DNA of 64,000 bases from an uncultured Gammaproteobacteria bacterium. GTDB lineage: Bacteria; Pseudomonadota; Gammaproteobacteria; JABCZS01. The position numbers were made by a program, and so were the translations under genes. Location: positions 96,001 through 160,000 of the forward strand of contig CAWKDC010000001.1 of assembly GCA_963848305.1 (NCBI GenBank), given 5' to 3'. Below the pieces are notes generated by a model. The model searched no databases, was not told the origin of the DNA, and saw nothing but the letters and a program-made list of their open reading frames with translations. This document shows, piece after piece, positions 42,357 through 61,252 of the stretch (its first letter is position 1; each line of letters opens with the position of its first letter).

Positions 42357-43521
42357 ATGAAGGAATGTGTGAAAGTTTTCCTCTCCATCGTTTTTTGTAC
42401 CGGTGCCCTTTTGCTTTCGAGCGCGACCGAGGCATTGGCCCAGACGAGCACGGGAACCGTTCTTGGCGTTGTGTCAGACCAGTCGGGGGGTGCCGTTCCG
42501 GACGCGGAAGTGGCACTTGTATCGACAACGACGGGTGTTAAGCGCACGACTGAGTCTCTCCAAACTGGAAACTACGAGTTTCCCTTGGTGGCGCCGGATA
42601 CGTATCAACTCACGGTAACCAAGTCAGGTTTCAGCACAGCCGCCTTCAACAATGTTGTCGTAAGAGTTAACGAGACGTTCACCCAAAACGTGGAAATGAG
42701 CGTTGGCAGTACAACGCAGCAAGTTACGGTCACGGCGGATGTGGCGAAGGTTGATACGAGCACGGCGACGCTGGGGGCCGTTACGGGGTATACCCAGATC
42801 ACCACTCTTCCCATTCTGGGCCGGAGTTTCCTCGCGCTAGCGACACTTTCCGCCGGGACGGTGGTCGATTATCCGGGAAGCTGGACGGGCACTTTCTCGG
42901 GCGGCCGGTCGGATATGGCGGTTGGCGTTTCGGGCGCCCAGGATTTCTTCACCACCAACCTGATCGACGGAGTGCCGACCAAGAGTCCGGAGTATGGCGG
43001 CATTGGGTACCAATTACCCCTGGAGATGATCGACGAATTTAACATCCAGCGTGGCTATTACTCCGCCAAATACCCGGGACCGGGCGTGGTCAACATCGCG
43101 AGCCGCTCGGGAGCGAATCAAATTCATGGCGTTGCCTGGGAAACCATCCGCAACAACGTCTTGGACTCGCGCAGCTTTTTCGATCAGAACATACCTCCCT
43201 TGCGGCAGAACCACTTCGGCGGGGCGTTCGGTGGAGCGATCAAGAAGGACAAACTCTTCTATTTTGGCAATGTACAATTTGTCCGCGACGTGATCGGGAG
43301 CACGCTCCTGGGATCTGTGCCCACGGCCTCCGAGTTGCAGGGAAACCTCTGCGATATCCCCGCCATCTCGCTCACCAATCCATTCACTGGCGGAGCTCTG
43401 TCATGTGTTATTCCCCAGGGCAATTTCGATCCGTTTGCCACGAAATTCATCGCCTTGGGATCCAGGGCCATTCCGCCCCCCACAACGTCGGGTCCGGCAG
43501 GAAGCATCAATCGTATCATCA
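42357..43521 (+). CDS. TonB-dependent receptor (carboxypeptidase-regulatory N-domain, Oar-like), truncated at the junction
   Basis: AAGGAGG RBS, signal peptide, TGTVLGVVSDQSGG, SGANQIHG, RQNHFGG, KDKLFYF; only about 390 aa of a type normally above 1000 aa. Confidence 0.88.
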
Positions 43522-44211
43522 CGATTAACAGACGATAACGCTTTGATCAACCGCATGGGTTTTCCCAATAAAGGCGTTGATCACCTTGTACAGCGACTTT
43601 CAACGCTTAAGCAGCGCCCTGTCCTGGGTATTAATATTGGCAAAAATGCAGCAACCTCACTAGAGGATGCCATTCACGATTATACTCACTGTTTAACGCG
43701 TGTTTATCCATACGCTGATTACGTTGCAGTGAACCTGTCTTCCCCCAATACCCCAGGATTACGCGAACTTCAGGGAGGGCGTTATTTGCCTGGTCTTTTG
43801 TCCGCCCTCAAAGCAGAGCAGGCCAGATTGGCAGATCAAACAGGGCGCCATGTCCCATTGGTCGTTAAAATCTCACCTGACCTCGCAGACTCAGAGGTGG
43901 AGGATATCGCACATATGCTTTTAGAAGCCCGTATAGAGGGTGCAATAGCGACCAATACGACCTTGTCTCGTTCAGGGCTTCATAAATCACTTGATCAGGC
44001 AGGGGGATTGAGCGGGGCACCTTTATTTTCTGCCTCTACTCACGTATTATCTCTCTTGAAAAAGGCGGTTGGGGATAAAATCGCTCTCATAGGCGTCGGG
44101 GGAATCATGGGTTCACAGGATGCCCAAGCCAAGTATGCGGCCGGCGCAGATTTGATTCAGGTCTACACAGGGCTCATTTACCAGGGTCCAGGCATGGTCA
44201 AAACCCTCTAA
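43522..44211 (+). CDS. pyrD: Quinone-dependent dihydroorotate dehydrogenase, 5' part missing
   Basis: INRMGF, GINIGKN, NLSSPNTPGLR, VKISPDL, ATNTT, GGLSG, GVGGI. Confidence 0.95.
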   Translation, partial: RLTDDNALINRMGFPNKGVDHLVQRLSTLKQRPVLGINIGKNAATSLEDAIHDYTHCLTRVYPYADYVAVNLSSPNTPGLRELQGGRYLPGLLSALKAEQARLADQTGRHVPLVVKISPDLADSEVEDIAHMLLEARIEGAIATNTTLSRSGLHKSLDQAGGLSGAPLFSASTHVLSLLKKAVGDKIALIGVGGIMGSQDAQAKYAAGADLIQVYTGLIYQGPGMVKTL

Positions 44212-44481
44212 TCTTCCAGAATGTCTTTAAAGTTTGTGAGACATTGTCCATTTTGTGCCATCCTTTTAGCTAAAGTTGGCAATCTTCATTGATTTGAAAT
44301 TTTCAATATGTTAATTTGGCTCTATCGAAGTGCAATCATTTTGTAGGTTGTGAAAGGTTAAAGCTTACAAAATCAATGTGCTAGCGATGTTTGAGTCATT
44401 TTGATCGTAGTTTGCTTCTTAACTTGTGTTGGTTGCAGAATACTGTTAAAATACCCAGACCTGGCACTTAACGGTGCATGT

Positions 44482-44510
44482 AGGGTCTACTACCCTTGCG
44501 GGGGAGTAGA
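44482..44510. promoter_or_regulatory. Palindrome/hairpin upstream of the TetR gene (possible operator)
   Basis: AGGGT-CTACT-ACCCT overlapping an alternative stem TCTACT...AGTAGA. Confidence 0.4.
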
Positions 44511-44542
44511 GAGAGGTTTTACTTAGAAATAGGAAGTGTCAT

Positions 44543-45155
44543 ATGCCACGCAAAACAGACAAACGCCAACGCCTGATTCAGGCTGCCAAGAAACTCATCC
44601 GTAGACAAGGTTTTCACTTAACAACCTTGGCTGATATTGCTCAAGAGGCAGATGTGCCGTTGGGTAACGTTTATTATTACTTTAAGACCAAAGAAGCGAT
44701 TGGTGAAGCTGTGATTGCCGATATTTCACGCAGTTTGAATGAGTTGATCACCGCCTGGGACGAGAATGCTGATCCCCGCGATAGACTGTTTGCTTTTGTC
44801 CAAGAAGAAGTCTCCAATGTCGAAGAAACAGCCCGTTCCGGCTGTGCCATTGGTGGACTTTGCCAAGAATTGGCAAAACAGGGCGGTCGCATTGGCCGAC
44901 GCTGCTGCCAAATTGATGAGCGACACCATTGCTTGGGCGGCTAAGCAATTTCATTCCTTGGGTATGGGCGATGCCTCAGGTGACCTGGCCAACCAATTCT
45001 ACGGAATGGTTCAAGGGACAGCCTTGTTGACGAACACGTTTAAAGAGCCAAAGTTGATGATCAACTTGAGCCAATCTCTCCGTGTTTGGTTGGACAAGCA
45101 TGTTGCGAAAGGTAAGGCAACTGCACCTATGGCTATTAAAGAAGAAGTGGCTTAA
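44543..45155 (+). CDS. TetR/AcrR family regulator (LmrA/NemR-like); frameshift near 44885
   Basis: GFHLTTLADIAQEADVPLGNVYYYFKTKE; GCAIG; C-terminus continues in the ORF ending at 45155. Confidence 0.88.
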
Positions 45156-45175
45156 ACTCCCTTTTTCAATGTTAG

Positions 45176-45202
45176 AAAAAACGCGCTCAAGGCGCGTTTT
45201 TT
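45176..45202. terminator. Bidirectional rho-independent terminator
   Basis: AAAAAACGCGC-TCAAG-GCGCGTTTTTT between convergent genes. Confidence 0.85.
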
Positions 45203-45224
45203 CTTTTTCCATTTCTACCACTTG

Positions 45225-45479
45225 CTAAGGCCAATTATTAAATAGCTTTCTGGCAACCTCGTGTTGCGGTTGTTGGGGTACTGCGTGACTAAACAATAAT
45301 GGCTGAGCAGGCACCCAAACGGCAATATTCTCTATGTCATCATCGTCAACATCTTGGACGTGAAAACCTACTTTTCTGGGTGCACCTGGTACAACCAGCG
45401 TTCTTGCTGGTTGAGCAGGTGTTGATGGAACGTTGGCATTCATTGCTGCTAGCCCAGCGTTATTGTTCGGATTTATCAT
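45225..45479 (-). CDS. Small orphan protein (84 aa) with TP, PGAPRK and RKLF linear motifs
   Basis: Strong AAGGAG RBS 6 nt before ATG; terminator directly downstream. Confidence 0.75.
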   Translation of the reverse strand: MINPNNNAGLAAMNANVPSTPAQPARTLVVPGAPRKVGFHVQDVDDDDIENIAVWVPAQPLLFSHAVPQQPQHEVARKLFNNWP

Positions 45480-45604
45480 ACAAATCTCCTTACTGAAACA
45501 AAGTATTTACTGATACTACTAAGAAATGTTAGTTACTGCACCAATCATACCTTATGACTATAGTCAGGAGATCAGATTTATACAAGTCCAAAGGATAATT
45601 CTTT

Positions 45605-46087
45605 TTAATGATTCCTTTTATCCACTCTAGGTCGTTTAGCAGGCTTCTCTGGTCTGGAAGGACATGTTGGCTGAATGTATTTGGGTACAGGTGTGCTGAC
45701 AGCGAACTGAATCATATTCATGAGATCTTCTTTATGGCCTTCCAGATGAGGGGCATTGAAGATTTGAGCGATGGCATGCTTAATCAAGGCGTTGCTTATT
45801 CTTGGATTTGTTTTAACAGGTTCTAAACGCAATGGCGCGTTCTCAGCATCTACCAACATAGAACCTAAGGATAGCGTGCCTAACCCATTGACCATCAGAT
45901 GATTGATCAACGTAATTAATTGATTTCTGTATTCTTTTGAAACCTGCATGTCAAGATGGAGGCACTGGCTGTCATCTTGCCAGATACCAATTTCTTGATC
46001 GCCTTGAACATAGTTAACTTGTCGTGCGACACTGGGCGACTTCTCATCTGTTAACGTCAAATCGCCGATTTTGTCCCATTGTTTCAT
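45605..46087 (-). CDS. Orphan protein with C-terminal NLS-like basic motif
   Basis: GGGGG RBS before ATG at 46087; ends CPSRPEKPAKRPRVDKRNH. Confidence 0.7.
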   Translation of the reverse strand: MKQWDKIGDLTLTDEKSPSVARQVNYVQGDQEIGIWQDDSQCLHLDMQVSKEYRNQLITLINHLMVNGLGTLSLGSMLVDAENAPLRLEPVKTNPRISNALIKHAIAQIFNAPHLEGHKEDLMNMIQFAVSTPVPKYIQPTCPSRPEKPAKRPRVDKRNH

Positions 46088-46180
46088 ATTGACCCCCAAA
46101 CTGCTTAATAACCACTATAAAACTGATGGCTATCTTACCCTTCATTTTTTAATAAGTCAAATAAAAAATGTTAGGTAAAT

Positions 46181-46369
46181 TTATGCCAACGCCGTCTGTT
46201 TGAGGATGATTTGGATGACAAGGCCTAGACTTGCGATGAAAATGAGGATAAATATAACCCCTACAAGCACGTAAGGCCATAATTTTGTTTGAGAAAAGTC
46301 TTTATGGGCTGCATTTGCAGGGTGCACGCCGAGCATTGCACTCAAAACACTTTTAACGATATCCCACAT
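46181..46369 (-). CDS. DUF2970 family small membrane protein
   Basis: KSVLSAMLGV, KDF, then a TM helix. Confidence 0.75.
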   Translation of the reverse strand: MWDIVKSVLSAMLGVHPANAAHKDFSQTKLWPYVLVGVIFILIFIASLGLVIQIILKQTALA

Positions 46370-46371
46370 GA

Positions 46372-47144
46372 TTAGCGCTCCAATTGTCGTTCCATGTCAG
46401 TACGTACCCGAGACATCAAGGCATCCCGGCTGTTAGTGCCTGTCCCCATTCCTTGCGTATCAATCGGCTCCCCAACAGTGACGGTCACAGTTTTGCCAGC
46501 AGAGAAATCCCATGTCTTGGCAGGCAAAATATCATGGGTGCCATGGATGGTCATCGGGATAATGATGGCCTCGGCTTCAAGGGCCAATATGAAAATCCCC
46601 TTTTTGAAGGGAAGAAGTTCACCTGTGCGAGAACGGGTTCCTTCTGCAGCGGCCCAGATCACAATGCCACTTTCCATGAGTTTTTTCGCTGCTTGTAGAG
46701 CAGATAGGGCATGATGACGGTTTTGACGGTCGATTTTGATGTACTCATGCTTCGTGAGCGCCGCCAAAAAAGGGAATATCGAATAGTTCCTTTTTTGTGA
46801 TCATACGAATACTATAAGGAAGGGCCGCATACACGGCAGGGATATCAAAGTGGCTGGCATGGTTGGAAATGAGGATATAAGGGCGACCTGGGATCAGCGC
46901 GGGTGGTGTCCCTTTCACTTGCAAATGCGCGCCGACAGCGGCGAGCATTTGCTGCCCAAATTCCTTGGCAAGCGTATCAGTACGTTCGCGGTTATTGCGA
47001 CCGGCCATATTCATATAAATGCTTTTCACCAGCATTTTGCAAAATACAAAAAGCGAGGCAAGGGCAAGGTATGTGCGTGTTTGTTTAATCATATACGTAT
47101 AGTACCACAACAGATATGAGTAAATGCGACCATTTTGACGACAT
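46372..47144 (-). CDS. plsC: 1-acyl-sn-glycerol-3-phosphate acyltransferase; frameshift near 46760, start uncertain
   Basis: NHASHFD, KKELF, IDR, EGTRS, PFKKG motifs. Confidence 0.85.
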
Positions 47145-49646: not shown

Positions 49647-52034
49647 ATGGACTTGCTGCTATGGATTGTGGCGCTTATCGCCGTCCTGGGGTTGGGATTT
49701 TCTGGCGCATCCTCGTGGGTATGGACAGGCACATCCGGCGCTGTTTTATGCTTACTGACCGTCAATAATGTCTTATCATGGCCACTTCTGATCTTTTTCT
49801 GGCCAATCTGGGTCGTGACTGTGTTGTTTTGTCACGTGTCTGCATGGCGTGTTCGTTTTTTCACGAAGCCCATTGCGCGTTTTGTTAAAAAACAATTGCC
49901 CCCCATTTCTGATACAGAGCAAGCAGCGATTGATGCAGGAGATATTTGGTGGGATGCCGCTTTGATGCGGGGGACGCAATCATGGGACGATATTGCTGCA
50001 TTTGATGTGCAAAAACTCACCATTGAAGAATTGGCATTTCTCAATCAACAAGTCGATGCGTTGTGTAAACTTGTGGACAAATGGATGCAAGACAATTCAC
50101 GTCAACATAGTGAAGCTGTCTGGGCGTACATTAAAAGAGAAAAATTTTTCAGCATGATCATCCCTAAGCAATATGGTGGATTGGGATTTTCTGCGTATGC
50201 GCAATCATGCATATTAAGTAAAATTGCGACCAAAGATATCAGCACAGCAGTCACTGTCATGGTTCCCAATTCATTAGGTCCCGCGGAATTATTGCTACAT
50301 TATGGAACGCCAGAGCAACAATCCTTTTATTTGCCTCGTCTAGCAGATGGCACGGACATCCCATGTTTTGCATTAACATCACCCGATGCTGGCAGTGATG
50401 CGGGTGGTATGATCGATCAAGGGATTATCATGGAAGGCATGCACGAAGGGAAAACAGTCCTGGGCATTTCATTGACCTTCAATAAGCGTTATATCACGCT
50501 CGCTCCTGTTGCAACAGTGGTTGGTTTGGCGTTTAAATGTTTCGATCCCAAACATCTCATCGGTGATCGTGTTGAATGCGGCATCACTGTCTGTTTATTG
50601 CCTTCTTCACATCCAGGCTTAATGATAGGCGATCGACATTATCCGATTGGCGGTGCTTTTCCCAATGGCAGCGTACAGGGTAAAGAGGTTTTTATTCCTA
50701 TTGATTGGGTTGTGGGTGGACAAGCGTTTGTGGGCCAAGGCTGGCGTATGCTCATGGAATGTTTGGCTGCAGGACGAGGCATTTCATTGCCAGCATTGGC
50801 CAGTGCGAGTGCGAAATTGGCTGATTTGTCGACAGCTTGTTATGGTCGAGTGCGGCAGCAATTCAGAGTTTCTATCGGCGCTTTTGAAGGGATTCAATCA
50901 GGCATGGCAGAGATAGGCGGTATTGCTTATTTGCTTGAAGCCATGCGCACAATCACATCCAGTGCGATTTCATCAGGGATCAAGCCCGCTGTTGTCTCCG
51001 CCATTGCTAAATATCACATGACAGAACTTGCCCGTGTTGCGATGACGCATGCGATGGATATTCATGCAGGTAAAGGGATCATGCTTGGACCAAAAAATTA
51101 TTTAGCCAATACGTACGTGAGCATGCCTGTCGCCATCACGGTAGAAGGCGCAAATATTTTAACCAGAAATTTAATTATTTTTGGACAAGGGGCGATACGA
51201 TGCCATCTTTATTTATTGAAAGAAATGAATATGGCTGCAGCACCTGTGCTCGATGTGAAAGCATTTGATCGCGTGTTACGTGATCATGTGCATTTCGGTA
51301 TTGAGCGTTTTTTCAAAACGTTAGTATTGGGATTGCTTGCAGGACATGGATCGCACACATCATCGAAGTTAGGATTTAAAAAAACGCAGCAAGCTGTTTC
51401 TCGTATGAGTGATGCACTGGCTTTTGTCTCAGACATCACATTCCTATTGTTAGGTGGTCAATTAAAGCGAAAAGAATATTTGTCGGCAAGGCTGGGAGAT
51501 GTGCTGAGTTATTTATACATGACAACCTGCGTGATCAAGTATGCATCAACCATTGAGAATGACTCCCCGAAAGCGGCTACATTTGCAATGGCGTATTGTT
51601 TAAATAAAATTCAAATGGCATTTGACGCTTTTTTTGATAACTTCCCCATCAAATGGATTGGCAAGTTATTGAGGTTTATTGTCTTTCCATTCGGACGATC
51701 TTATCGCTATCCTTCTGATCAACTCTCCAGTGAACTCGCGAAAGAGATGATGGGCTCATCATTTAAGGAACCCATGTGGGAATCATTTTATGTTGGTGAC
51801 GATCACGATAATTTAGGCGTCGTCAGGGCTGCAGCCGAATTGGATGCTGCAATGCATGAGCAAATTCGAGCTGTACGCCATCTGCGTCTTGACAGTGTAT
51901 TGCCACAAACTTTTCGAGACAAATTAGCAGCGGCAGTTGAAGCGGGCACAGTGAGTGAATCAGATCATCAGCATTTATTACGTTATTGCGACCTGGTTGA
52001 AAAATCAATCGCTGTAGATACTTTTTCAACTTAG
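49647..52034 (+). CDS. fadE: Acyl-CoA dehydrogenase (long FadE type)
   Basis: LPPISDTE, VPNSLGP, PCFALT.P.AGSDA, KRYITLAP, ITVEGANILTR. Confidence 0.93.
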   Translation: MDLLLWIVALIAVLGLGFSGASSWVWTGTSGAVLCLLTVNNVLSWPLLIFFWPIWVVTVLFCHVSAWRVRFFTKPIARFVKKQLPPISDTEQAAIDAGDIWWDAALMRGTQSWDDIAAFDVQKLTIEELAFLNQQVDALCKLVDKWMQDNSRQHSEAVWAYIKREKFFSMIIPKQYGGLGFSAYAQSCILSKIATKDISTAVTVMVPNSLGPAELLLHYGTPEQQSFYLPRLADGTDIPCFALTSPDAGSDAGGMIDQGIIMEGMHEGKTVLGISLTFNKRYITLAPVATVVGLAFKCFDPKHLIGDRVECGITVCLLPSSHPGLMIGDRHYPIGGAFPNGSVQGKEVFIPIDWVVGGQAFVGQGWRMLMECLAAGRGISLPALASASAKLADLSTACYGRVRQQFRVSIGAFEGIQSGMAEIGGIAYLLEAMRTITSSAISSGIKPAVVSAIAKYHMTELARVAMTHAMDIHAGKGIMLGPKNYLANTYVSMPVAITVEGANILTRNLIIFGQGAIRCHLYLLKEMNMAAAPVLDVKAFDRVLRDHVHFGIERFFKTLVLGLLAGHGSHTSSKLGFKKTQQAVSRMSDALAFVSDITFLLLGGQLKRKEYLSARLGDVLSYLYMTTCVIKYASTIENDSPKAATFAMAYCLNKIQMAFDAFFDNFPIKWIGKLLRFIVFPFGRSYRYPSDQLSSELAKEMMGSSFKEPMWESFYVGDDHDNLGVVRAAAELDAAMHEQIRAVRHLRLDSVLPQTFRDKLAAAVEAGTVSESDHQHLLRYCDLVEKSIAVDTFST

Positions 52035-52054
52035 CATTGATTGAGGAGTCAATT

Positions 52055-53350
52055 ATGTTTTCCAAGCGAGATGTGTATATTGTCGATGGAGCGAGAACCC
52101 CTTTTTTAAAAGCAAAGACTGCGCCGAATCCCTTCTCAAGTTGTGATTTGGCGGTAGCTGCAGGGCAAGCATTGTTGATGCGTCAGCCATTTTCACCTCA
52201 TCATATTGATCAGGTGATAGTCGGTTCAACCATTCCTAATCCTGATGAAACCAATATTGGGCGCATGGTTGCACTGCGGGTGGGCTGTGGAGACAGTGTG
52301 CCAGGTATGACAGTGATGCGTAATTGTGCTTCTGGGTTGCAGGCATTGGATACAGCGGCTTGTCAAATCATGTTAGGTAAAAGCAACCTCGTTTTAGCAG
52401 GCGGTACAGATGCCATGAGCCAGGCTCCGTTGCTGCTGAATGAAGAAATGACGCGTTGGTTGTCCTATTTTTTTGCGGCTAAATCACCTGTTGAAAAATT
52501 AAAATTGATCACACAGTTGCGTCCACGCTATTTTGCGCCCGTGATCTCCATTTTGAGAGGGCTGTCAGATCCAGTCGTTGGGATTTCTATGGGACAAACA
52601 GCCGAAAATGTGGCTTTTGAATTTAATATTGATCGACTGGCGATGGATGAATATTCACTGCAAAGTCATCAGCGTACAGCGAAAGCGCAAGATGAGATGA
52701 TGTTTCCTGAAATCGTGCCCATTTGTGATAGCCGTGGGAAGACATATACGTTTGATGATGGTGTTCGACGTGATAGCTCGTTGGAAAAGCTTGGTAAATT
52801 AAAACCTTATTTTGACAAAAAATATGGGCAGATCACCGCAGGTAATAGTTCTCAGATTACTGACGGCGCTGCCATGTTAATTCTGGCAAGCAAAGAGGCT
52901 GTTCAAGAGTATCAATTACCCGTCATGGCAAGAATAGTCGATTGTCAATGGTCTGCGTTAAGTCCCGCATACATGGGTCTCGGCCCTGCTTATGCCATTG
53001 CGGCCTTATTACAAAAGCAAAAGCTGGCACTTAAAGATATCGATTATTTTGAAATCAATGAAGCTTTCGCAGCGCAAGTCATTGGCTGCGTTCTTGCATT
53101 AGACAGTGACACCTATTGTCGTGAAAAATTAGGCTTGCCTGGTGCGTTAGGACTGATCGATCCACTTCGTATGAATATTCATGGTGGGGCGATTGCCGTT
53201 GGTCATCCGGTCGGTGCAAGTGGTGCACGCCTTGCGTTGCACATGGCTCATATCTTGAAACGACAAAAAGCCAAGTACGGTATTGCGAGTTTGTGCATTG
53301 GGGGAGGCCAAGGTGGCGCCATGCTGATTGAATCAGTGGAAGGAGTATAA
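52055..53350 (+). CDS. Acetyl-CoA C-acyltransferase (FadI/YfcY-like thiolase)
   Basis: NCASG, NEAFA, GHPVGASG, CIGGGQG; insertion typical of the FadI type. Confidence 0.92.
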   Translation: MFSKRDVYIVDGARTPFLKAKTAPNPFSSCDLAVAAGQALLMRQPFSPHHIDQVIVGSTIPNPDETNIGRMVALRVGCGDSVPGMTVMRNCASGLQALDTAACQIMLGKSNLVLAGGTDAMSQAPLLLNEEMTRWLSYFFAAKSPVEKLKLITQLRPRYFAPVISILRGLSDPVVGISMGQTAENVAFEFNIDRLAMDEYSLQSHQRTAKAQDEMMFPEIVPICDSRGKTYTFDDGVRRDSSLEKLGKLKPYFDKKYGQITAGNSSQITDGAAMLILASKEAVQEYQLPVMARIVDCQWSALSPAYMGLGPAYAIAALLQKQKLALKDIDYFEINEAFAAQVIGCVLALDSDTYCREKLGLPGALGLIDPLRMNIHGGAIAVGHPVGASGARLALHMAHILKRQKAKYGIASLCIGGGQGGAMLIESVEGV

Positions 53351-53352
53351 AG

Positions 53353-55392
53353 ATGAAAACATTGAAACAGTATCAACATTGGAATTTGAAAACTGATAAG
53401 CATGATATTCTGTGGCTTTATTTCGATAAAAAAGGGGAAAGCGCCAATACCATTAATCATGAAGTGCTGGATGAATTAGCTGATATTTTTGCAGATTGTA
53501 TAGCACATCCTCCAAAAGGGCTTGTGATTGCATCTGCCAAGAAATCTGGTTTTATTGCGGGTGCTGATGTCAGAGAAATACAACAATTAAATTCATCAGA
53601 TAAAGTTGTTGCCTTTTTAGAAAAGGGGCAAGCCGTATGTAATGCTTTGTCAAAATTACCGTGTCCAACACTTGCTTTCATTCAAGGGTTTTGTTTGGGC
53701 GGTGGATTGGAATTATCTCTATCTTGTGATTACCGCATTGCAGAAGATCGTCCGGACACCAAGATAGGTTTACCAGAAATTTTATTGGGGATTCTCCCCG
53801 GTTGGGGCGGTACAGTGCGCTTGCCGCGGTTGATTGGTTTCCCGAATGCAATGGACATGATTTTAACTGGGAAAACATTAAGTGCCAAGGCTGCAAAGGC
53901 GGTAGGTGTTGTTGATGAATGTTTGCCAGAGCGTGTCATGACATTGGCAGCAGTTAATATTCTTTTGAATAAGCCGTCTAAACATAAAGCACCTGTTTAT
54001 CATATGTTGTTTGATTTGAAACCTATGCGCATGTTGTTGGCCAGTTATTTGCGTCGAGAAGTGGGGAAACGTGCCTCTCGAGAGCATTATCCTTCTCCCT
54101 ATGCCGTGATCGATAATTTTGAAGCTTATGGTTCATCTAATGCTGGTTTTAAGGCGGAGATTAAATCCCTCTCTCATATTTCTGGTGAATCCACTGCGCA
54201 GAACTTGATCCGAATTTTCTTTTTGCAAGAAAAGTTAAAAGAAGCAGCAAAACAAGTTAAATTTAAAGCACAACACGTGCATGTCATTGGCGCTGGTACC
54301 ATGGGTGGAGATATCGCGGCGTGGTGTGCGATGCAAGGAATCCGTGTCACACTCCAAGATACTTCGATTGAACGCATTGCGCTTGTGGTTAAAAAGTTCA
54401 GTGATGATCTGAAGAAACGTGTCAAAGATCGTATTAAAATCATGCACTATCGTGATTTATTGACGCCTGATCTCAAGGGAGACGGTATCGCATTTGCAGA
54501 TGTCATCATTGAGGCGGTATTTGAAAATCTCGATGTGAAACAAACTATTTTCAGGGATGTTGAATCGCGTGCAAAACAAACCGCCATTTTGGCCACGAAT
54601 ACATCCAGCATTCCGTTGGATGACATCAATACAGTGATGAGCAATCCATCTCGTCTTGTCGGGATACATTTTTTCAATCCCGTCTCAAAAATGCAATTGG
54701 TTGAAGTGATTCATGGCAATAACACTGATGCGAATGTATTATCACAAGCAGCAGCTTTTGTACTGCAGATCAAGAAATTGCCTTTATCTGTCAAATCTGC
54801 GCCAGGTTTTCTGGTCAATCGTTGCTTAACACCGTATTTGCTTGAAGCAGTTGCATTGCTCGATGAAGGCGTTCCACCCGCTGTCATCGATAAAGCAGCG
54901 GTTGATTTTGGCATGCCCATGGGGCCGATTGAATTGGCTGATGTGGTAGGGCTTGATATTTGTTTATCGGTAGCAGAACATTTAAAAGGTAAAATTGATA
55001 TCACGATCCCTGAGGTGTTGGTAAATAAAGTTAAATCAGGACTTCTTGGTAAAAAAACAGGCAAAGGTTTTTATCAATGGCATGGCAGCAAATGCATCAA
55101 GCCTGCTGCGGCTCATCTTTCAGAGAAGTTATCTGAGGATATCATTCAAAATCGTTTGGTTTTTCGTTTATTGAATGAATCCATGGCGTGTTTAAGGGAG
55201 CATATTGTTAATAACGCCGATCATCTCGACGCAGGCATTATTTTCGGCACCGGTTTCGCGCCATTTCGTGGCGGGCCTATGCATTATGCACAAACCATTG
55301 GTTACCCACAAATAGTTGAAGCATTGAATGATTATGCAAAAGCGTATGGTGATAGATTCACTCCTGATGCAGGATGGAAGGGCGGGCAATAA
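53353..55392 (+). CDS. Enoyl-CoA hydratase / 3-hydroxyacyl-CoA dehydrogenase (FadJ/YfcX-like)
   Basis: FIAGAD, GGGLE, GLPE, GAGTMG, TNTSS, GIHFFNP. Confidence 0.93.
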   Translation: MKTLKQYQHWNLKTDKHDILWLYFDKKGESANTINHEVLDELADIFADCIAHPPKGLVIASAKKSGFIAGADVREIQQLNSSDKVVAFLEKGQAVCNALSKLPCPTLAFIQGFCLGGGLELSLSCDYRIAEDRPDTKIGLPEILLGILPGWGGTVRLPRLIGFPNAMDMILTGKTLSAKAAKAVGVVDECLPERVMTLAAVNILLNKPSKHKAPVYHMLFDLKPMRMLLASYLRREVGKRASREHYPSPYAVIDNFEAYGSSNAGFKAEIKSLSHISGESTAQNLIRIFFLQEKLKEAAKQVKFKAQHVHVIGAGTMGGDIAAWCAMQGIRVTLQDTSIERIALVVKKFSDDLKKRVKDRIKIMHYRDLLTPDLKGDGIAFADVIIEAVFENLDVKQTIFRDVESRAKQTAILATNTSSIPLDDINTVMSNPSRLVGIHFFNPVSKMQLVEVIHGNNTDANVLSQAAAFVLQIKKLPLSVKSAPGFLVNRCLTPYLLEAVALLDEGVPPAVIDKAAVDFGMPMGPIELADVVGLDICLSVAEHLKGKIDITIPEVLVNKVKSGLLGKKTGKGFYQWHGSKCIKPAAAHLSEKLSEDIIQNRLVFRLLNESMACLREHIVNNADHLDAGIIFGTGFAPFRGGPMHYAQTIGYPQIVEALNDYAKAYGDRFTPDAGWKGGQ

Positions 55393-55393
55393 C

Positions 55394-57736
55394 ATGAAGA
55401 ACATTCAGTGGCACGTTGGATCTGTTGCTGTTTTGGGTGCCGGTGTCATGGGCGCGAAGATTGCAGCATTATTTGTCAATGCAGGTTTTCCAGTTCTTTT
55501 GTTTGATCTCGCTGCAGGTGACAATAGGAATATGCTGGCAGAAGATGCTATTCGTGGTTTGCTCACGACACATCCCCCTGCATTGGTTGATCCTGCTTGG
55601 TCAAGGTACATTACGCCCGCCAACTATGAAACAGATTTAGATAAGCTAACATCCTGTAGTTTGATTATTGAAGCGATTGCTGAAAGATTAGATTGGAAAA
55701 AAGATTTATTTTATAAGATTGAATCCTTTATTTCTGAACATGCAGTATTGGCGACGAATACTTCAGGTCTCAGTATTGAGGCATTGTCAGAAGTTTTGCC
55801 ATCATCTTTGCGTTCAAGATTTCTGGGTTTGCATTTTTTCAACCCGCCACGTTATCTGACTTTGGTTGAAATGATTCCATCAACGCATACAGATCCTGAA
55901 TTGCTCGATCAACTTGAAACTTTTTTGACAATTTACCTCGGTAAAAATGTGTTGCGGGCATTTGACACGCCTAATTTTATTGGTAATCGCATGGGCGTTT
56001 TTTCGTTATTAACTACGTTGCACCATGCTGATGCATTTGATTTGCGTTTTGATCTGGTGGATGCATTAACGGGTACGTTGATTGGTCACCCTAAAAGCGC
56101 CACCTTTAGAACCTTGGATCTCGTCGGGTTAGATACATTCGCGCATGTTGTCACGACAATGGCGCGTGATCTGAAGCAAGATCCCTGGCATGCCTTGTTT
56201 AAAGTTCCAGATTGGATGAAAAAATTAATTGATAAGGGTGCTTTAGGTGAGAAATCAGGTGCAGGTATTTATAAGAAAGACAAAGGGGAATTATTCGTTT
56301 ATGATGTGAAAGATGGCACTTATAAAAAGGTTGCTGCTCAACCCAACCGTGACATCACTGATGTGCTGAAAGATCATAAAAAACCCTGTGCTTTAAAAGT
56401 AGTGTTTAACAAAAAACACCCTGAGGCTGAGTTTCTATGGGCCTATCATCGCGATGTTTGGCAATATGCTGCACATCATTTGAAGGATATTGCACATAAT
56501 GTTCGTGATGTTGATTGTGCCATGAAATGGGGTTTTGCTTGGCTACAGGGTCCTTTTGAATCTTGGCAATCTTTAGGCGTCAATGATATCGCGCAGAAAA
56601 TAGTGGATGATCCGGCATCAATGGATGTGCCTGGTGTCGGTGTTTTACCTGAATGGATTTCTTTATTGGAAAGTCAATCATTTTATGTTGATCAGACATC
56701 CTATTCTGCCCAAACAATGTCATATCAACCTCCCTCAACATTGCCTGTCTATCGACGCCAACATTTCATCATATCCAAACCAATATACGAAAATGATTTT
56801 GTCGAGATGTGGCATCACGACAATGATGTTTTTGTCTTAAGTTTTAAGTCGAAACTGGGATCGATCAGTCAGGGCGTCTTGTCAGGTATTACACGTTGTG
56901 TGGAACTTGCGTCAGAGAATGCTGCGGGACTCGTGATCTGGCAACGGCAAAGTCCTCAATTTTCTGTCGGGGCAGATATCCGTGAATTTTTGGATTCCAT
57001 GCAGAAAAAGCAATTTTCACAAATCGAACAGACGCTGAAAAACTTTCAAGACATGTGTTTATTAATACGTTACTCACGTATTCCTGTTGTTGCTGCATTG
57101 AAAGGGTATGTGTTCGGTGGAGGCTGTGAATTGGCGATGCATTGCGATAAACGTGTTGCAGCGCAGGAAACCTACATGGGGTTGGTAGAAGCGGGTGTCG
57201 GTTTATTGCCAGGTGGCGGCGGCTCGAAGGAGTGGGCGTTGCGTGCCAGTGATAATGCGCCCCAAGATCCTATGTTTTTGTTAAAGGGTTTTTTTGAACA
57301 AGTTGCTATGGGCAAGTCCAGCGACAATGCAAACATGGCTCAAAAAATGGGTTATTTATTACCCGCTGATCCCATTATCATGAACCCAAATGAATTATTA
57401 TTTGTAGCAACGCAACAAGCGATCACAATGGCGCAATCAGGATATTGTCCTCCACGTCATCCTCACATTAAAGTCGTTGGCGAATCAGGTTGGGCTGAGT
57501 TTGAAACGCAATTGGTGAATATGGTCGAAGGGAAATTTATTTCTCCTCACGATTATGCAGTGGCACATCATATTGCAAAAGTGATGTGCGGTGGCATGAT
57601 TGATACAATGAATGAAGTGGATGAGCAGTGGATGTTGCGGCTGGAGCGTGAAGGATTTGTTGAACTTGCGCAAACACCTGAAACGCAAGCCAGAATTGCC
57701 CACATGCTTGAAACAGGTAAACCGTTGAGGAATTAG
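55394..57736 (+). CDS. 3-hydroxyacyl-CoA dehydrogenase / enoyl-CoA hydratase (FadN-like, reversed domain order)
   Basis: GAGVMG, TNTSG, HFFNPPRY, GGGCE, GLVEAGVG, TGKPLRN. Confidence 0.92.
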   Translation: MKNIQWHVGSVAVLGAGVMGAKIAALFVNAGFPVLLFDLAAGDNRNMLAEDAIRGLLTTHPPALVDPAWSRYITPANYETDLDKLTSCSLIIEAIAERLDWKKDLFYKIESFISEHAVLATNTSGLSIEALSEVLPSSLRSRFLGLHFFNPPRYLTLVEMIPSTHTDPELLDQLETFLTIYLGKNVLRAFDTPNFIGNRMGVFSLLTTLHHADAFDLRFDLVDALTGTLIGHPKSATFRTLDLVGLDTFAHVVTTMARDLKQDPWHALFKVPDWMKKLIDKGALGEKSGAGIYKKDKGELFVYDVKDGTYKKVAAQPNRDITDVLKDHKKPCALKVVFNKKHPEAEFLWAYHRDVWQYAAHHLKDIAHNVRDVDCAMKWGFAWLQGPFESWQSLGVNDIAQKIVDDPASMDVPGVGVLPEWISLLESQSFYVDQTSYSAQTMSYQPPSTLPVYRRQHFIISKPIYENDFVEMWHHDNDVFVLSFKSKLGSISQGVLSGITRCVELASENAAGLVIWQRQSPQFSVGADIREFLDSMQKKQFSQIEQTLKNFQDMCLLIRYSRIPVVAALKGYVFGGGCELAMHCDKRVAAQETYMGLVEAGVGLLPGGGGSKEWALRASDNAPQDPMFLLKGFFEQVAMGKSSDNANMAQKMGYLLPADPIIMNPNELLFVATQQAITMAQSGYCPPRHPHIKVVGESGWAEFETQLVNMVEGKFISPHDYAVAHHIAKVMCGGMIDTMNEVDEQWMLRLEREGFVELAQTPETQARIAHMLETGKPLRN

Positions 57737-57739
57737 AAG

Positions 57740-58933
57740 ATGCATTCAGACGCATACATTGTTGCTGCCACTCGCACGCCTGTGGGCAAAGCGAATAAAG
57801 GTGTGTTCAAACACACGCGACCCGATGATTTGTTGACCCATGCGATCAAATCATTGGTGGCGCTCAATCCTCAAGTCGATCCTAATGAAATTGCTGATGT
57901 GGTGATCGGCTGTGCGATGCCAGAAGCAGAGCAGGGGATGAATGTGGCACGTATTGCCACTTTGCTCGCAGGTTTGCCGGTGGGTGTTCCTGGTGTCACC
58001 GTGAACCGATTTTGTGCATCAGGTATTCAATCGATTGCAATGGCAGCAGCTCATGTTCAACTTGGCCATGTCGATTGTGTGATCGCAGGTGGTGTGGAAA
58101 GCATGAGCTTTGTGTCGCTGGGTGGTCGAGAGTTAAAAACAAATCCACGCATTTTTATCCAGGATGATACCGTATCGATAGCTTATGGCATGGGCTTAAC
58201 AGCTGAGCGTGTCGCAGAAAAATGGCATATTTCTCGTGAGCGTCAAGATGCTTTTGCATTACAAAGTCATCAACGTGCGGTTGCAGCGATCAACATTGGT
58301 GCTTTCAAAGATGAAATTTCACCGATTTGGGTAGACACCCGCACGGCGAATCTTCAGCATCAGTGCATTGACATCTCACACCAACAAGTTTCAGTAGATG
58401 AAGGTCCCCGCAAAGATACCACTTTGGAACGTCTCTCTCAATTGAAGCCTGTTTTCATGAGAGGCGGCACAGTCACTGCAGGAAACAGTTCACAAATGAG
58501 CGATGGTGCTGCTGCCGTCATGATTGTCAGTGAATCATTCATGACATCGCATCAACTCAAACCCCTGGGCATCCTCCGTGGCTATGCTGTGAAAGGGGTG
58601 TCTCCTGAATATATGGGTATTGGTCCTGTGGAGGCGATCCCTGCTGCATTGAAACAGGCTGGTCTAACATTGCAAGACATGCAATGGATAGAGTTAAATG
58701 AAGCGTTTGCGGCGCAGTCGTTGGCTGTGATGGATACAATCGGTCTAAATCCAGCGATCGTGAACCCCCTCGGCGGCGCGATTGCATTGGGGCATCCACT
58801 GGGTGCAACTGGGGCGATCAGAACAGCCACTCTACTGCATGGCATGCGTCGTCAGAAACTGAGATACGGAATGGTCACAATGTGCATTGGCACTGGGATG
58901 GGTGCCGCTGCGGTTTTTGAAGCCTTATATTAA
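57740..58933 (+). CDS. Acetyl-CoA C-acyltransferase (FadA-like thiolase)
   Basis: RPDDL, NRFCASG, NEAFA, GHPLGATG, CIGTGMG. Confidence 0.93.
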   Translation: MHSDAYIVAATRTPVGKANKGVFKHTRPDDLLTHAIKSLVALNPQVDPNEIADVVIGCAMPEAEQGMNVARIATLLAGLPVGVPGVTVNRFCASGIQSIAMAAAHVQLGHVDCVIAGGVESMSFVSLGGRELKTNPRIFIQDDTVSIAYGMGLTAERVAEKWHISRERQDAFALQSHQRAVAAINIGAFKDEISPIWVDTRTANLQHQCIDISHQQVSVDEGPRKDTTLERLSQLKPVFMRGGTVTAGNSSQMSDGAAAVMIVSESFMTSHQLKPLGILRGYAVKGVSPEYMGIGPVEAIPAALKQAGLTLQDMQWIELNEAFAAQSLAVMDTIGLNPAIVNPLGGAIALGHPLGATGAIRTATLLHGMRRQKLRYGMVTMCIGTGMGAAAVFEALY

Positions 58934-59487: not shown

Positions 59488-61252
59488 ATGCTGATGAGGT
59501 ACATATTGAAACCGTCCGACTGGTCAACCTACACCCGCCTTTTTACCTATGTTAAACGGTATTGGGGTCTTTTCCTCATTGCTGGGGTTAGCTCTGCCCT
59601 CTATTCCGCCGTGGATGCGGGGATGATCAAGCTCCTACAACCCTTGGTGGACGACGGTTTTGTGGCCCAGGACCCAGGCTTCATTAAAATGATACCTATT
59701 ATATTGCCCCTTGTATTTTTGGTGCGTGGGGTACTGAGCTTTGGGTCCGACTATAGTTTGGCCTGGTTGTCTCGAAAAGTGGTCATTGCCGTGCGTCAGG
59801 AATTGTTCAACCATTATCTCAAATTACCTGCGACATTTTTCGATCGATATTCATCAGGAGAATTATTATCCAAGCTCACCTTTAATGTGGAGCAAATTTC
59901 AAAAGCCTGCACTGATGCGATTTTAGATTCAGTCCGTAATGGCTTTTTGGTGCCTATTTTTGCTCGGTGTGATGGTGACAATCAGTTGGGAATTAACCGC
60001 GTGGTTTTTCATCAGTGCCCCGGTGCTGTATTTATTGTTTGCGATGTCCAGTTATCGATTGCGAAAATACAGTCATGATATTCAGGGTAGCATGGGACAC
60101 ATGACCCATGTCGCCGAGGAAAATATCACAGGTTACCGTGAAGTGAAAATATTTGGTGGCGAAGCGTATGAGCGCCGTCAATTTGAACAAGCAATGGAAA
60201 AAAACAGAAAAGTGGAAATGCGGTTGCAACTCACTAAATCTGTCAGCGTACCTTTGATTCAGTGGGTGGGCGGCTGCGCATTGGCATTCACGTTATTCAT
60301 TGCGACAAGCTCTGAAGGTGGAATCACGTTATCTGCCGGTGGGTTCACAAGTTTTGTCTCGGCCATGTTAGCATTGCTCAAGCCCATTAAAGAATTAACA
60401 TCGGTCAATAGTAAAATACAACGTGGGATTGCTGGCGCCCAAAGTATTTTTGCAACGCTTGATATACCCGCTGAAAAAGACACTGGTACGGTTGTGTTGA
60501 ACCGTGCAAAAGGACATATCCAGATCCAGGATTTATCATTCCAGTACACACCTGCGCACGATCCCGTTTTGCAGCATATCAACCTAACGGTTGAGCCTGA
60601 AATGCATGTGGCTATCGTGGGTAAATCTGGCAGTGGCAAAACAACTTTGGTGAATTTGCTGCCGAGATTATATGAATTTGATACTGGAGCCATCATGCTG
60701 GATGGTGTCTCTATTCGTGATATTGAGATCAAATCATTGCGACATCAATTTGCGATCGTGTCCCAGAACGTGACTTTATTCAATGACACGATTGCACGTA
60801 ACATAGCGTATGGAGAAACGGACATCGATGATGCACGAATGCTTTTGGCGGCTGAAATGGCCTTTGTCACCGAATTTTCAGATAAATTTCCTGATAAATT
60901 AAATACCTTGATCGGTGATGACGGGGTATTATTATCAGGTGGTCAGCGGCAACGTTTAGCAATTGCCCGTGCTATTTATAAAAATGCACCGATTTTAATT
61001 TTGGATGAAGCCACTTCCGCGTTGGATTCTGTTTCAGAGCGTAAAATTCAGGATGCACTCGAAGCGTTGATGAAAAATCGAACGAGCATTATCATCGCAC
61101 ACCGGCTTTCAACCATTGAAAATGCCGATAAAATTGTGGTGATGGATCAGGGGCGTATCATTGAAGAAGGTACGCATGCTTCATTGTTGTCGAATGGTAA
61201 GATTTACAAGCAGCTTCACCAATTACAGTTTAGCGATGAAAAAAATGTTTGA
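59488..61252 (+). CDS. msbA: Lipid A export ABC transporter; frameshift near 59945
   Basis: TM domain, GKSGSGKT, LSGGQRQR, ILDEATSALD, IAHRLST; directly upstream of lpxK. Confidence 0.95.

Follow-up and report, generated by a model that had tools for sequence, protein, structure and literature searches.

An 84-residue orphan gene

The window analysed here is a 64,000-nt stretch (G000:C1:96001-160000) from the genome of an uncultured gammaproteobacterium, G000, whose 1.89-Mb assembly comprises four contigs and is 92% complete. Its minus strand carries an open reading frame (ORF), P0001, that spans positions 45225 to 45479, stop codon included, and encodes 84 amino acids without internal stops. 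A Shine-Dalgarno sequence, AAGGAG, can be read on the same strand at 45486–45491, 6 nt 5′ of the ATG. An intrinsic terminator (45174–45204) follows 20 nt past the stop codon; it has a 14-pair stem with six G-C pairs and a T-run, the palindromic G+C stem lying between A6 and T6. The terminator works in both directions and serves P0001 on the minus strand and a TetR gene on the plus strand, which converges on P0001. The original prediction, made from the sequence alone, had described a standalone 84-residue ORF with these two signals; the ORF is intact, and both signals are present.

As that prediction had also stated, the protein is rich in Pro, Ala and Asn (P 11, A 11, V 10 and N 9 of 84 residues) and carries, in order, STP (residues 19–21), VPGAPRK (30–36), an acidic run, DVDDDDIE (43–50; 45330–45353, minus strand), and VARKLF (75–80). 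An AlphaFold2 model computed from the single sequence has a mean predicted local distance difference test score (pLDDT) of 51.3 and a predicted template modelling score of 0.16, and its sole helix is short and C-terminal (72–81). The model is compatible with disorder, although this is weak evidence, since models built from one sequence are often poor.

We regard P0001 as a genuine small protein of a gammaproteobacterium that bears Dot/Icm genes, one that evolves fast and is probably intrinsically disordered. The gap of 125 nt between P0001 and a 164-residue ORF upstream contains stop codons in all three frames; P0001 is therefore a gene of its own and not the frameshifted tail of that ORF. Its sequence and length are vouched for by P0002, an independent 84-residue twin from another metagenome that is identical at 83 of 84 positions (99%), with the single difference in the seven-residue spacer between TP and VVPGAPRK. 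A contig from run X4, which represents a relative of ~95% identity, matches 45458–45592 (the intergenic region and the first codons) and then diverges inside the body of P0001, suggesting fast evolution; past this point the frame is kept over the 30 letters shown, 19 of which are alike by eye. The contigs aligned from runs X1–X4 are scattered pieces of the stretch and leave 45160–45430 without coverage. The G+C content (GC) of P0001, 46%, equals that of the genome.

The genome encodes a type IVB secretion system, Dot/Icm, for which the original prediction had suggested a search. One cluster contains IcmL (186 bits), IcmK (157 and 113 bits, in a split gene) and IcmS (50.5 bits), together with a DotB-type ATPase (T2SSE), a DotC-type lipoprotein (T4SS_TraI), a DotG-type TrbI domain and DotM (DotM_C). 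The description of the organism as Legionellales-like could be checked only in part, the Dot/Icm genes being present. The closest named relative, with 73% identity in the Slt protein, is an uncultured Gammaproteobacteria bacterium, and the runs that share parts of the stretch are labelled as wetland, soil and sediment metagenomes. No match to a PmrA-type regulatory box, in the consensus that we take it to have, was found in the window at up to three mismatches.

Recurrence of the block in giant-virus-type proteins

P0001 matches no family in Pfam (E ≤ 0.1), NCBIfam or PHROG. A word-index search recovered one protein at E ≤ 10 among 32 candidates, P0002, and its 'longer' form recovered none of 830 candidates. 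The ESM Atlas returned only unnamed clusters of low recognition. An exhaustive phmmer search of 1.84 billion representatives found three proteins at E ≤ 0.001: P0002, P0003 and P0004. P0003, a 2,925-residue eukaryote-type repeat protein with IQ motifs, was set aside; it matches only via the acidic/aromatic stretch of a long tandem repeat (13 stretches), and we treat its score as compositional or repeat-inflated. When PDB sequences were searched for P0001 and P0004 (E ≤ 10), only chance rows came back (E ≥ 1).

P0004 (170 residues) matches residues 17–38 of P0001 three times, with an E-value of 2e-5 over the whole library. BLASTP aligns the two proteins with 14 of 20 identities, and their Smith-Waterman score is 74, compared with 26.8 ± 4.6 in 500 composition-preserving shuffles (z 10.3). 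Together, these values argue that the block is not a chance match. P0004 has five relatives, P0005–P0009, of 139–170 residues with two or three tandem repeats each, which share the block [PV]-x-T-P-x7-V-V-P-x-A-P-x-K followed by QDV...VP..LF. In the alignment, T-T-P and V-V-P-x-A-P-x-K are invariant, while the G/D and R/K positions vary; the Thr is never Ser, and position −2 is Pro or Val.

The two kinds of protein differ in architecture. The P0004 family has two or three tandem units, joined by very basic linkers, and a C-terminal element, a short alpha/beta fold in P0004 (low-confidence model, mean pLDDT 40), whereas P0001 consists of a single unit followed by a tail unrelated to theirs, with no counterpart of P0004 residues 118–170. 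The acidic run has no equivalent in the repeats of the family, and by eye it looks like an insertion of ~12 residues relative to P0004 repeat 1. The C-terminal RxLF, which the original prediction had singled out as a cyclin-docking motif, is not kept as RxL in these relatives, where only an LF recurs, 15–20 residues past the block. Searches of Pfam, NCBIfam and PHROGs with P0004, with the two block-bearing viral-contig ORFs described below (L031 and L035) and with a 286-residue ORF of the related genome G001 gave nothing usable.

Two loci of the P0004 family, L013 and L014, lie on metagenome contigs, have a GC of ~20% and are gene-dense on both strands. Their genes encode an acyl-CoA-binding protein (ACBP), a RING finger, a rhodopsin, a photolyase-related protein and DUF5654. 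The rhodopsin (L014:2017-2715) is of microbial type (Bac_rhodopsin, 90 bits). Giant viruses of marine protists that bear rhodopsins have been reported with a gene set like this one. The gene content of the two loci, in which no capsid gene was seen, suggests that they derive from a giant virus of a protist.

A search of giant viruses had been suggested together with the original prediction, and the TP...VVPGAPRK block was found there, both in the P0004 family and in an ORF on a contig whose name carries a giant-virus metagenome-assembled genome label (L031). The ORF was recovered when viral contigs were scanned at the DNA level for VVPGAP[RS]K. Of the 14 stretches obtained, ten encode VVPGAPRK in some frame and represent seven distinct sequences. 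In two of the seven, L031 and L035, a TP stands a short way upstream, and the neighbouring genes of both are of eukaryote type: M13 peptidase, OTU and PCIF1_WW next to L031, and UCH, RING and Xlink next to L035. L031 reads P-S-T-P-x7-VVPGAPRK, with the spacing of P0001. On the 63-kb viral contig of L035, the extracellular link (Xlink) protein (L035:489-1595) lies beside the UCH deubiquitinase and the RING protein; such an animal-type domain is unusual on a contig of a large DNA virus. A relaxed pattern, TP-x7-VVPGAP, from which the final R-K was dropped, matched 18 viral-contig stretches, all of which except L031 are Pro/Ala linkers or off-frame, and a variant with an out-of-frame spacer matched 23; the relaxed pattern is therefore at chance level. 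A scan of the viral contigs with the P0004-family alignment gave 69 matches, none of them confirmed.

Among prokaryote genomes, the block is rare. A scan of one genome each from 185,579 species yielded 175 pattern matches and no confirmed relative. At the DNA level, TP-x7-VVPxAPxK was found in one of the 12 genomes of the order, which as sampled consists of a single family, and in one of 401 genomes of the class; both hits are G000 itself, and a reversed control gave none. Searches for P0001 in 29 further genomes of the class returned nothing significant (best E 0.058, short off-target frames). Within G000, the expression [FILPVWY].TP.{10,14}AP.[KR] matches none of the 1,086 long ORFs (434,539 residues) and two of the 4,325 ORFs of at least 60 residues, one of which is P0001; when an LF downstream is added, P0001 is the sole match in the genome.

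Among 4,606 windows of 84 residues cut from the 1,086 long ORFs, 23% contain TP, 1.6% PxxPx[KR], 0.8% an acidic run of four and 3.8% [RK]xLF; P.AP[RK]K occurs in one window, and all four motifs in order occur in none. Across 200,000 shuffles that match P0001 in composition, TP, PxxPx[KR] and RxLF occur together at a frequency of 1.65e-4, and all four motifs never do. These figures are post hoc, as the motifs had been chosen after P0001 was seen, and the stronger argument is that the block recurs independently in other proteins.

Spacing rules and a proposed cyclin-CDK-Cks decoy

The layout of the block was compared with published rules for complexes of cyclin, cyclin-dependent kinase (CDK) and Cks. 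Cks1 recognises phospho-Thr only and acts in the N-to-C direction with an optimum of 12–16 residues; from T4 to S17 of Dna2, '13 residues' are called the 'ideal distance', and EP is not bound by Cks1 (PMC9385143). The CKS motif [FILPVWY]-x-T-P is most enriched in vivo 13–18 residues upstream (bioRxiv 10.1101/2025.07.04.663185). The optimal distance from a site to a cyclin-docking motif is 20–40 residues, with the docking motif C-terminal of the site (PMC6620034), and the optimal CDK2 peptide is HHASPRK (PMC9906319).

The elements of P0001, all on the minus strand, can be aligned with these rules. P18-S-T20-P21 (45417–45428), the proposed Cks-type priming site, matches the consensus [FILPVWY]-x-T-P with Thr and not Ser in the acceptor position. 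T20 precedes A33 by 13 residues, within the published window of 12–16. A33 lies in the conserved core defined by the alignments, V29-V-P-G-A33-P-R-K36 (45372–45395); its last four residues, the proposed pseudosubstrate, are the CDK optimum S/T-P-x-K/R with Ala as acceptor, or an S-to-A version of the HHASPRK core. The LxF-type motif L61-L-F63 (45291–45299) follows 28 residues past A33, inside the window of 20–40, whereas the RxLF-type motif R77-K-L-F80 (45240–45251), which falls in the sole predicted helix, lies 44–46 residues past A33 and outside it. P0001 and P0002 both have 13 residues from Thr to Ala, as do 19 of the 20 repeats of P0004–P0009 (the other has 12) and, by manual count, L031. 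In the viral repeats, LF follows the Ala by 15–20 residues. A Cks dock, 13 residues, A-P-x-K and then LF would match the published spacing rules, and the invariant residues (Ala as putative acceptor, Pro at +1 and Lys at +3) form the pattern predicted by S/T-P-x-K/R. The cyclin-CDK reading given in the original prediction gains a sharper basis from these rules.

These observations suggest, tentatively, that P0001 is a translocated, Cks-primed pseudosubstrate decoy of the host cyclin-CDK-Cks complex, a reading that we regard as possible but somewhat short of an even chance. P0001 would be delivered into a protist host and act there through its linear motifs. The host CDK or another proline-directed kinase would phosphorylate T20 of P-S-T-P, and phospho-T20 would enter the phosphate pocket of Cks. 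A33-P-R-K36, 13 residues on, would then be set in the CDK active site, where the non-phosphorylatable Ala would make it a pseudosubstrate, and L61-L-F63, R77-K-L-F80 or both would grip the hydrophobic patch of the cyclin. As a result, the host CDK would be inhibited or retargeted. The same three-part unit, in two or three tandem copies, may form the disordered part of P0004–P0009. The gene, its signals, its orphan status, the Dot/Icm genes of the genome and the recurrence of the block with its invariant positions and spacing are observed; translocation, phosphorylation, each binding step and any effect on the cell cycle are inferred. The broader proposition that P0001 carries linear motifs directed at the host, whatever their target, is somewhat more likely than not. 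It is more doubtful that a compact three-site decoy, made up of a phospho-Thr, an Ala CDK site 13 residues on and a cyclin-patch motif, spread or arose twice among unrelated intracellular parasites of protists, namely a type IVB-secreting bacterium and giant viruses.

Two characterised systems offer partial parallels to this mechanism. Yeast Cdc6 blocks M-CDK at low nM concentrations via Cks1-bound primed TP sites and an LxF motif. Like the N-terminal tail of Cdc6 (and Swe1), P0001 is probably disordered and would offer Cks1 a Thr-only TP with an LxF-type motif downstream, an arrangement that brings about inhibition and not turnover in Cdc6 (PMC6620034). Unlike P0001, Cdc6 has no Ala pseudosubstrate element and needs further protein parts for nM inhibition; the two share no sequence homology, and in P0001 each step is only proposed. 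The autoinhibitory loop L1 of separase places an 'AP' pseudosubstrate in the CDK1 active site of the separase-CDK1-cyclin B-CKS1 complex, where it mimics a consensus CDK site alongside linear motifs that contact the cyclin (PMC9906319). The separase element is APxxxxR within a large folded protein, whereas P0001 has A-P-R-K at exactly the optimal spacing in a free 84-residue peptide of bacterial origin.

With the Kip/Cip inhibitors p21 and p27, P0001 has in common the RxLF-type cyclin-docking motif, R77-K-L-F80. It lacks their CDK-binding beta-hairpin or 3-10 helix region, and it matches no Pfam family, the Kip/Cip CDI domain included, at E ≤ 0.1. p27 has its RxL on the N-terminal side of the part that binds the kinase. 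The RXL of p27 docks on cyclin A (PMC9906319). More distant likenesses are African swine fever virus A238L, which targets calcineurin, and Legionella LpPIP, which recruits PP1: each comes from an intracellular parasite and engages a conserved signalling enzyme of the host by way of short docking motifs. Their motifs and targets differ from those proposed here and have been proven experimentally, whereas those of P0001 are predictions.

The original prediction had likened P0001 to the plant SIAMESE-RELATED (SMR) CDK inhibitors. What defines SMRs is the combination of motifs A, B and C; the motif A Thr (T35 in SIM) is their most conserved residue and is required for function, and the phosphomimic T35D of SIM is functional (SIM paper). 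Motif C, with the consensus EIERFF, binds cyclin (PMC10904545). P0001, which like SMRs is small, has a TP, T20-P21, that may correspond to the T-P of motif A. It is followed by a Pro-rich element with basic residues, VPGAPRK, which has the PxxP-type form described for motif B (PMC7389639) and may be its counterpart. Motif C is missing; the nearest sequence in P0001 is D-I-E-N-I-A at 47–52, without FF. No homology is detectable, no family matches, and SMRs are described as plant-specific, whereas P0001 lies in a bacterial genome and its relatives on virus-type contigs. The block is compact here (TP-x7-VVPGAPRK), whereas we take the SMR spacer to be longer. In SMRs, the motif A Thr presumably precedes the A/P-P-R-K of motif B by ~17–18 residues, inside the 13–18 window for CKS motifs, which is a lead and not a result. 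The string CPPAPRK, given as the SMR motif in the original prediction, was not found in the literature searched, nor were PGAPRK and VPGAPRK. We consider it very improbable that P0001 is a true SMR gained by horizontal transfer; a similar way of working is possible.

Many observations weigh against P0001 being a cyclin-CDK-Cks decoy. The model was fitted after the motif had been seen, and the spacing match is post hoc. The TP of P0001 (TPAQ) is a minimal and not an optimal CDK site. The LF motifs are loose, with a true RxLF (RELF) in one of the three of P0004; those of the viral proteins lie at or under the 20–40 optimum, and RKLF of P0001 lies beyond it. In L031, no clear LF motif follows the block, and in L035 the TP stands just seven residues before the Ala. 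T35D is functional in SIM, yet EP is not bound by Cks1, so that the plant analogy gives no straightforward support to a Cks mechanism. Judged by eye, the C-terminus shows no obvious signal of the Dot/Icm type: only one Glu, and no block rich in Glu, falls within the last 30 residues. Searches for P0001 were negative in both other genomes of the genus and in all nine others of the family (11 of 11), and an unrelated ORF occupies the same slot in G001. Its codon-usage score, 0.028, is atypical for the genome: windows of real genes score 0.176 ± 0.068, with 1.5% of them below P0001, and 376 spurious antisense ORFs score −0.036 ± 0.076, with 20% of them at or above P0001. Finally, VPGAPRK equally fits PxxPxK, which we take to be the class II SH3 ligand consensus, and L28-V-V-P31 fits LxVP, presumably the calcineurin consensus.

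The first of these consensus matches would support a different host target. VPGAPRK could be a class II SH3 ligand, for instance of endocytic or actin-regulating adaptors, with the TP as a phospho-switch and no role for a CDK. P-x-x-P-x-K is invariant in P0001 and the viral family, and the Dot/Icm genes would suit this reading too. A study of maize SMRs calls the plant counterpart a 'typical PXXP structure' with polyproline II helices for protein interaction (PMC7389639), and viral hypervariable regions use such ligands, as in alphavirus nsP3, which binds CD2AP/SH3KBP1 (PMC5977219). However, an SH3 ligand leaves unexplained why the Thr is never Ser, why Pro or Val stands at −2, why the T-to-A distance is 13 (12 in one repeat), and why the Ala is invariant while G/D varies. 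On balance, we regard an SH3 target as unlikely.

A calcineurin (PP2B) decoy, with L28-V-V-P31 as an LxVP motif beside a phospho-TP in the manner of A238L, is less probable still. [LIM]-V-V-P occurs in P0001, in every repeat of the P0004 family and in L031, but no PxIxIT-like motif is seen by eye in P0001, and neither the invariant A-P-x-K nor the fixed T-to-A distance would be explained by the LxVP pattern that we assume. A protein of a large DNA virus that blocks calcineurin via PxIxIT and LxVP has been published (PMC3582496).

Five further candidates were considered by eye and rejected, as the viral relatives do not retain them: a histone H3 tail mimic (xQxAR......APRK), an APC/C D-box, a PP1 RVxF motif (KVGF), a WDR5 Win motif (ART) and a classical nuclear localisation signal (NLS).

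The remaining alternative dispenses with the host. P0001 could be a small protein specific to its bacterial lineage that has an internal role, or else an ORF of a variable slot, whether young, drifting or dying; its viral likeness would then be a horizontally moved or chance fragment without host function. The codon score between real genes and spurious ORFs points this way, as do the negative searches in the rest of the family, the unrelated ORFs that G001 and G002 carry between DUF2970 and TetR, the indel errors of the assembly (both described below) and the lack of a secretion signal recognisable by eye. However, P0001 has a strong Shine-Dalgarno sequence and a terminator, its length is identical in an independent metagenome, a protein match with E 2e-5 and z 10.3 is not expected of a non-coding stretch, and the spacing is kept across three unrelated protein contexts. 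These features make this explanation an outside chance, though one to be reckoned with.

Overall, the observation behind the original prediction is confirmed and its interpretation supported in part. That bacteria interfere indirectly with the host cell cycle is known, and we are aware of no protein from a bacterium or giant virus that blocks the active site of CDK as a pseudosubstrate; among the papers found on pseudosubstrate RxL CDK inhibitors, none concerns a pathogen protein, as judged by title or the start of the abstract. If the decoy mechanism is correct, P0001 would be the first direct pseudosubstrate inhibitor of cyclin-CDK-Cks encoded by a pathogen, a natural 84-residue peptide that reads the CDK 'multisite phosphorylation code' as an inhibitor, and it would hint that the motif A and motif B pair of plant SMRs works likewise. 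T20, A33 and LF would provide a simple handle on the takeover of protist cell cycles, and linear-motif modules would be common to giant viruses and secretion-system bacteria of the same kind of host. Pathogen proteins built of host-mimicking linear motifs are already known; the link between a secretion-system bacterium and giant viruses is unexpected.

The variable slot and the assembly around it

The order of genes around P0001 was compared with that in two relatives. In G001, it is Slt, plsC, DUF2970, a 286-residue ORF and TetR; in G000, the 164- and 84-residue ORFs fill the slot between DUF2970 and TetR. G002 has other genes after DUF2970, a 58-residue ORF and a 154-residue ORF on the opposite strand (L027:3155-3916). 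The 286-residue ORF of G001 (L026:3752-4612) is an Ala/Pro-rich orphan. It was considered as a relative of P0001, under the idea of a split gene, and showed no similarity (z −1.6); its similarity to the 164-residue ORF is not significant either (z 1.1, BLASTP E 0.069). The slot after DUF2970 is variable, a hot spot of lineage-specific genes across species of the genus. Should the CDK model fail, the locus would still clearly illustrate a variable slot for orphan genes in a lineage that has Dot/Icm.

The 164-residue ORF (45605–46099, minus strand) lies upstream of P0001 in the same direction. It has no Pfam, NCBIfam or PHROG family and no usable match in the ESM Atlas, and it is present in one of the 12 genomes of the family, G000 alone; its codon score, 0.126, lies inside the range of genes. 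A sigma-70-like promoter site, TTGACT-17-TAAGAT (46132–46160, minus strand; 9 of 12 hexamer positions matched), precedes it. Two such sites occur in 44300–46400, compared with 3.9 ± 1.9 in shuffles, so that the site is a consensus match only. This promoter-like site, together with the lack of a terminator between the ORFs, suggests that the 164-residue ORF and P0001 are one transcript, and the two are probably co-transcribed as a two-gene unit. No RNA dataset is listed among the 12 runs that share parts of the stretch. The tail of the 164-residue protein is Pro-rich and basic (V-S-T-P ... KRPRVDKR) and by eye resembles an NLS.

The first ~139.5 kb of contig C1 have a GC of 54–60%, and the remainder has ~46%. 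The switch falls in the window at ~43,520–43,543, with a truncated TonB-type outer-membrane gene on one side and, on the other, a dihydroorotate dehydrogenase gene whose N-terminal end is truncated. No aligned contig spans it, and one contig of run X3 continues into unlike sequence at 43520. Here the assembly has probably joined two organisms into a chimera; P0001 sits 1.7 kb inside the part with 46% GC.

The TetR gene (44543–45155) is split by one extra base at 44889. Because this base is missing in all three other runs that cover the position, the split is an assembly indel error and does not mark a pseudogene; in G001, TetR is intact with 200 residues. Three more genes are split into two overlapping frames: plsC (46372–47110), an msbA-type ABC exporter gene (59488–61252) and icmK (G000:C1:920666-921368). 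In G001 and G002, plsC is one ORF of 247–248 residues. The three splits are probably further indel errors of the same assembly.

Farther along the window, two consecutive fatty-acid beta-oxidation sets occupy 49647–58933. The first comprises an acyl-CoA dehydrogenase, a thiolase and a multifunctional FadB-type enzyme, and it is followed by a second FadB-type enzyme and a second thiolase, a notable endowment for a host-associated genome of 1.9 Mb.

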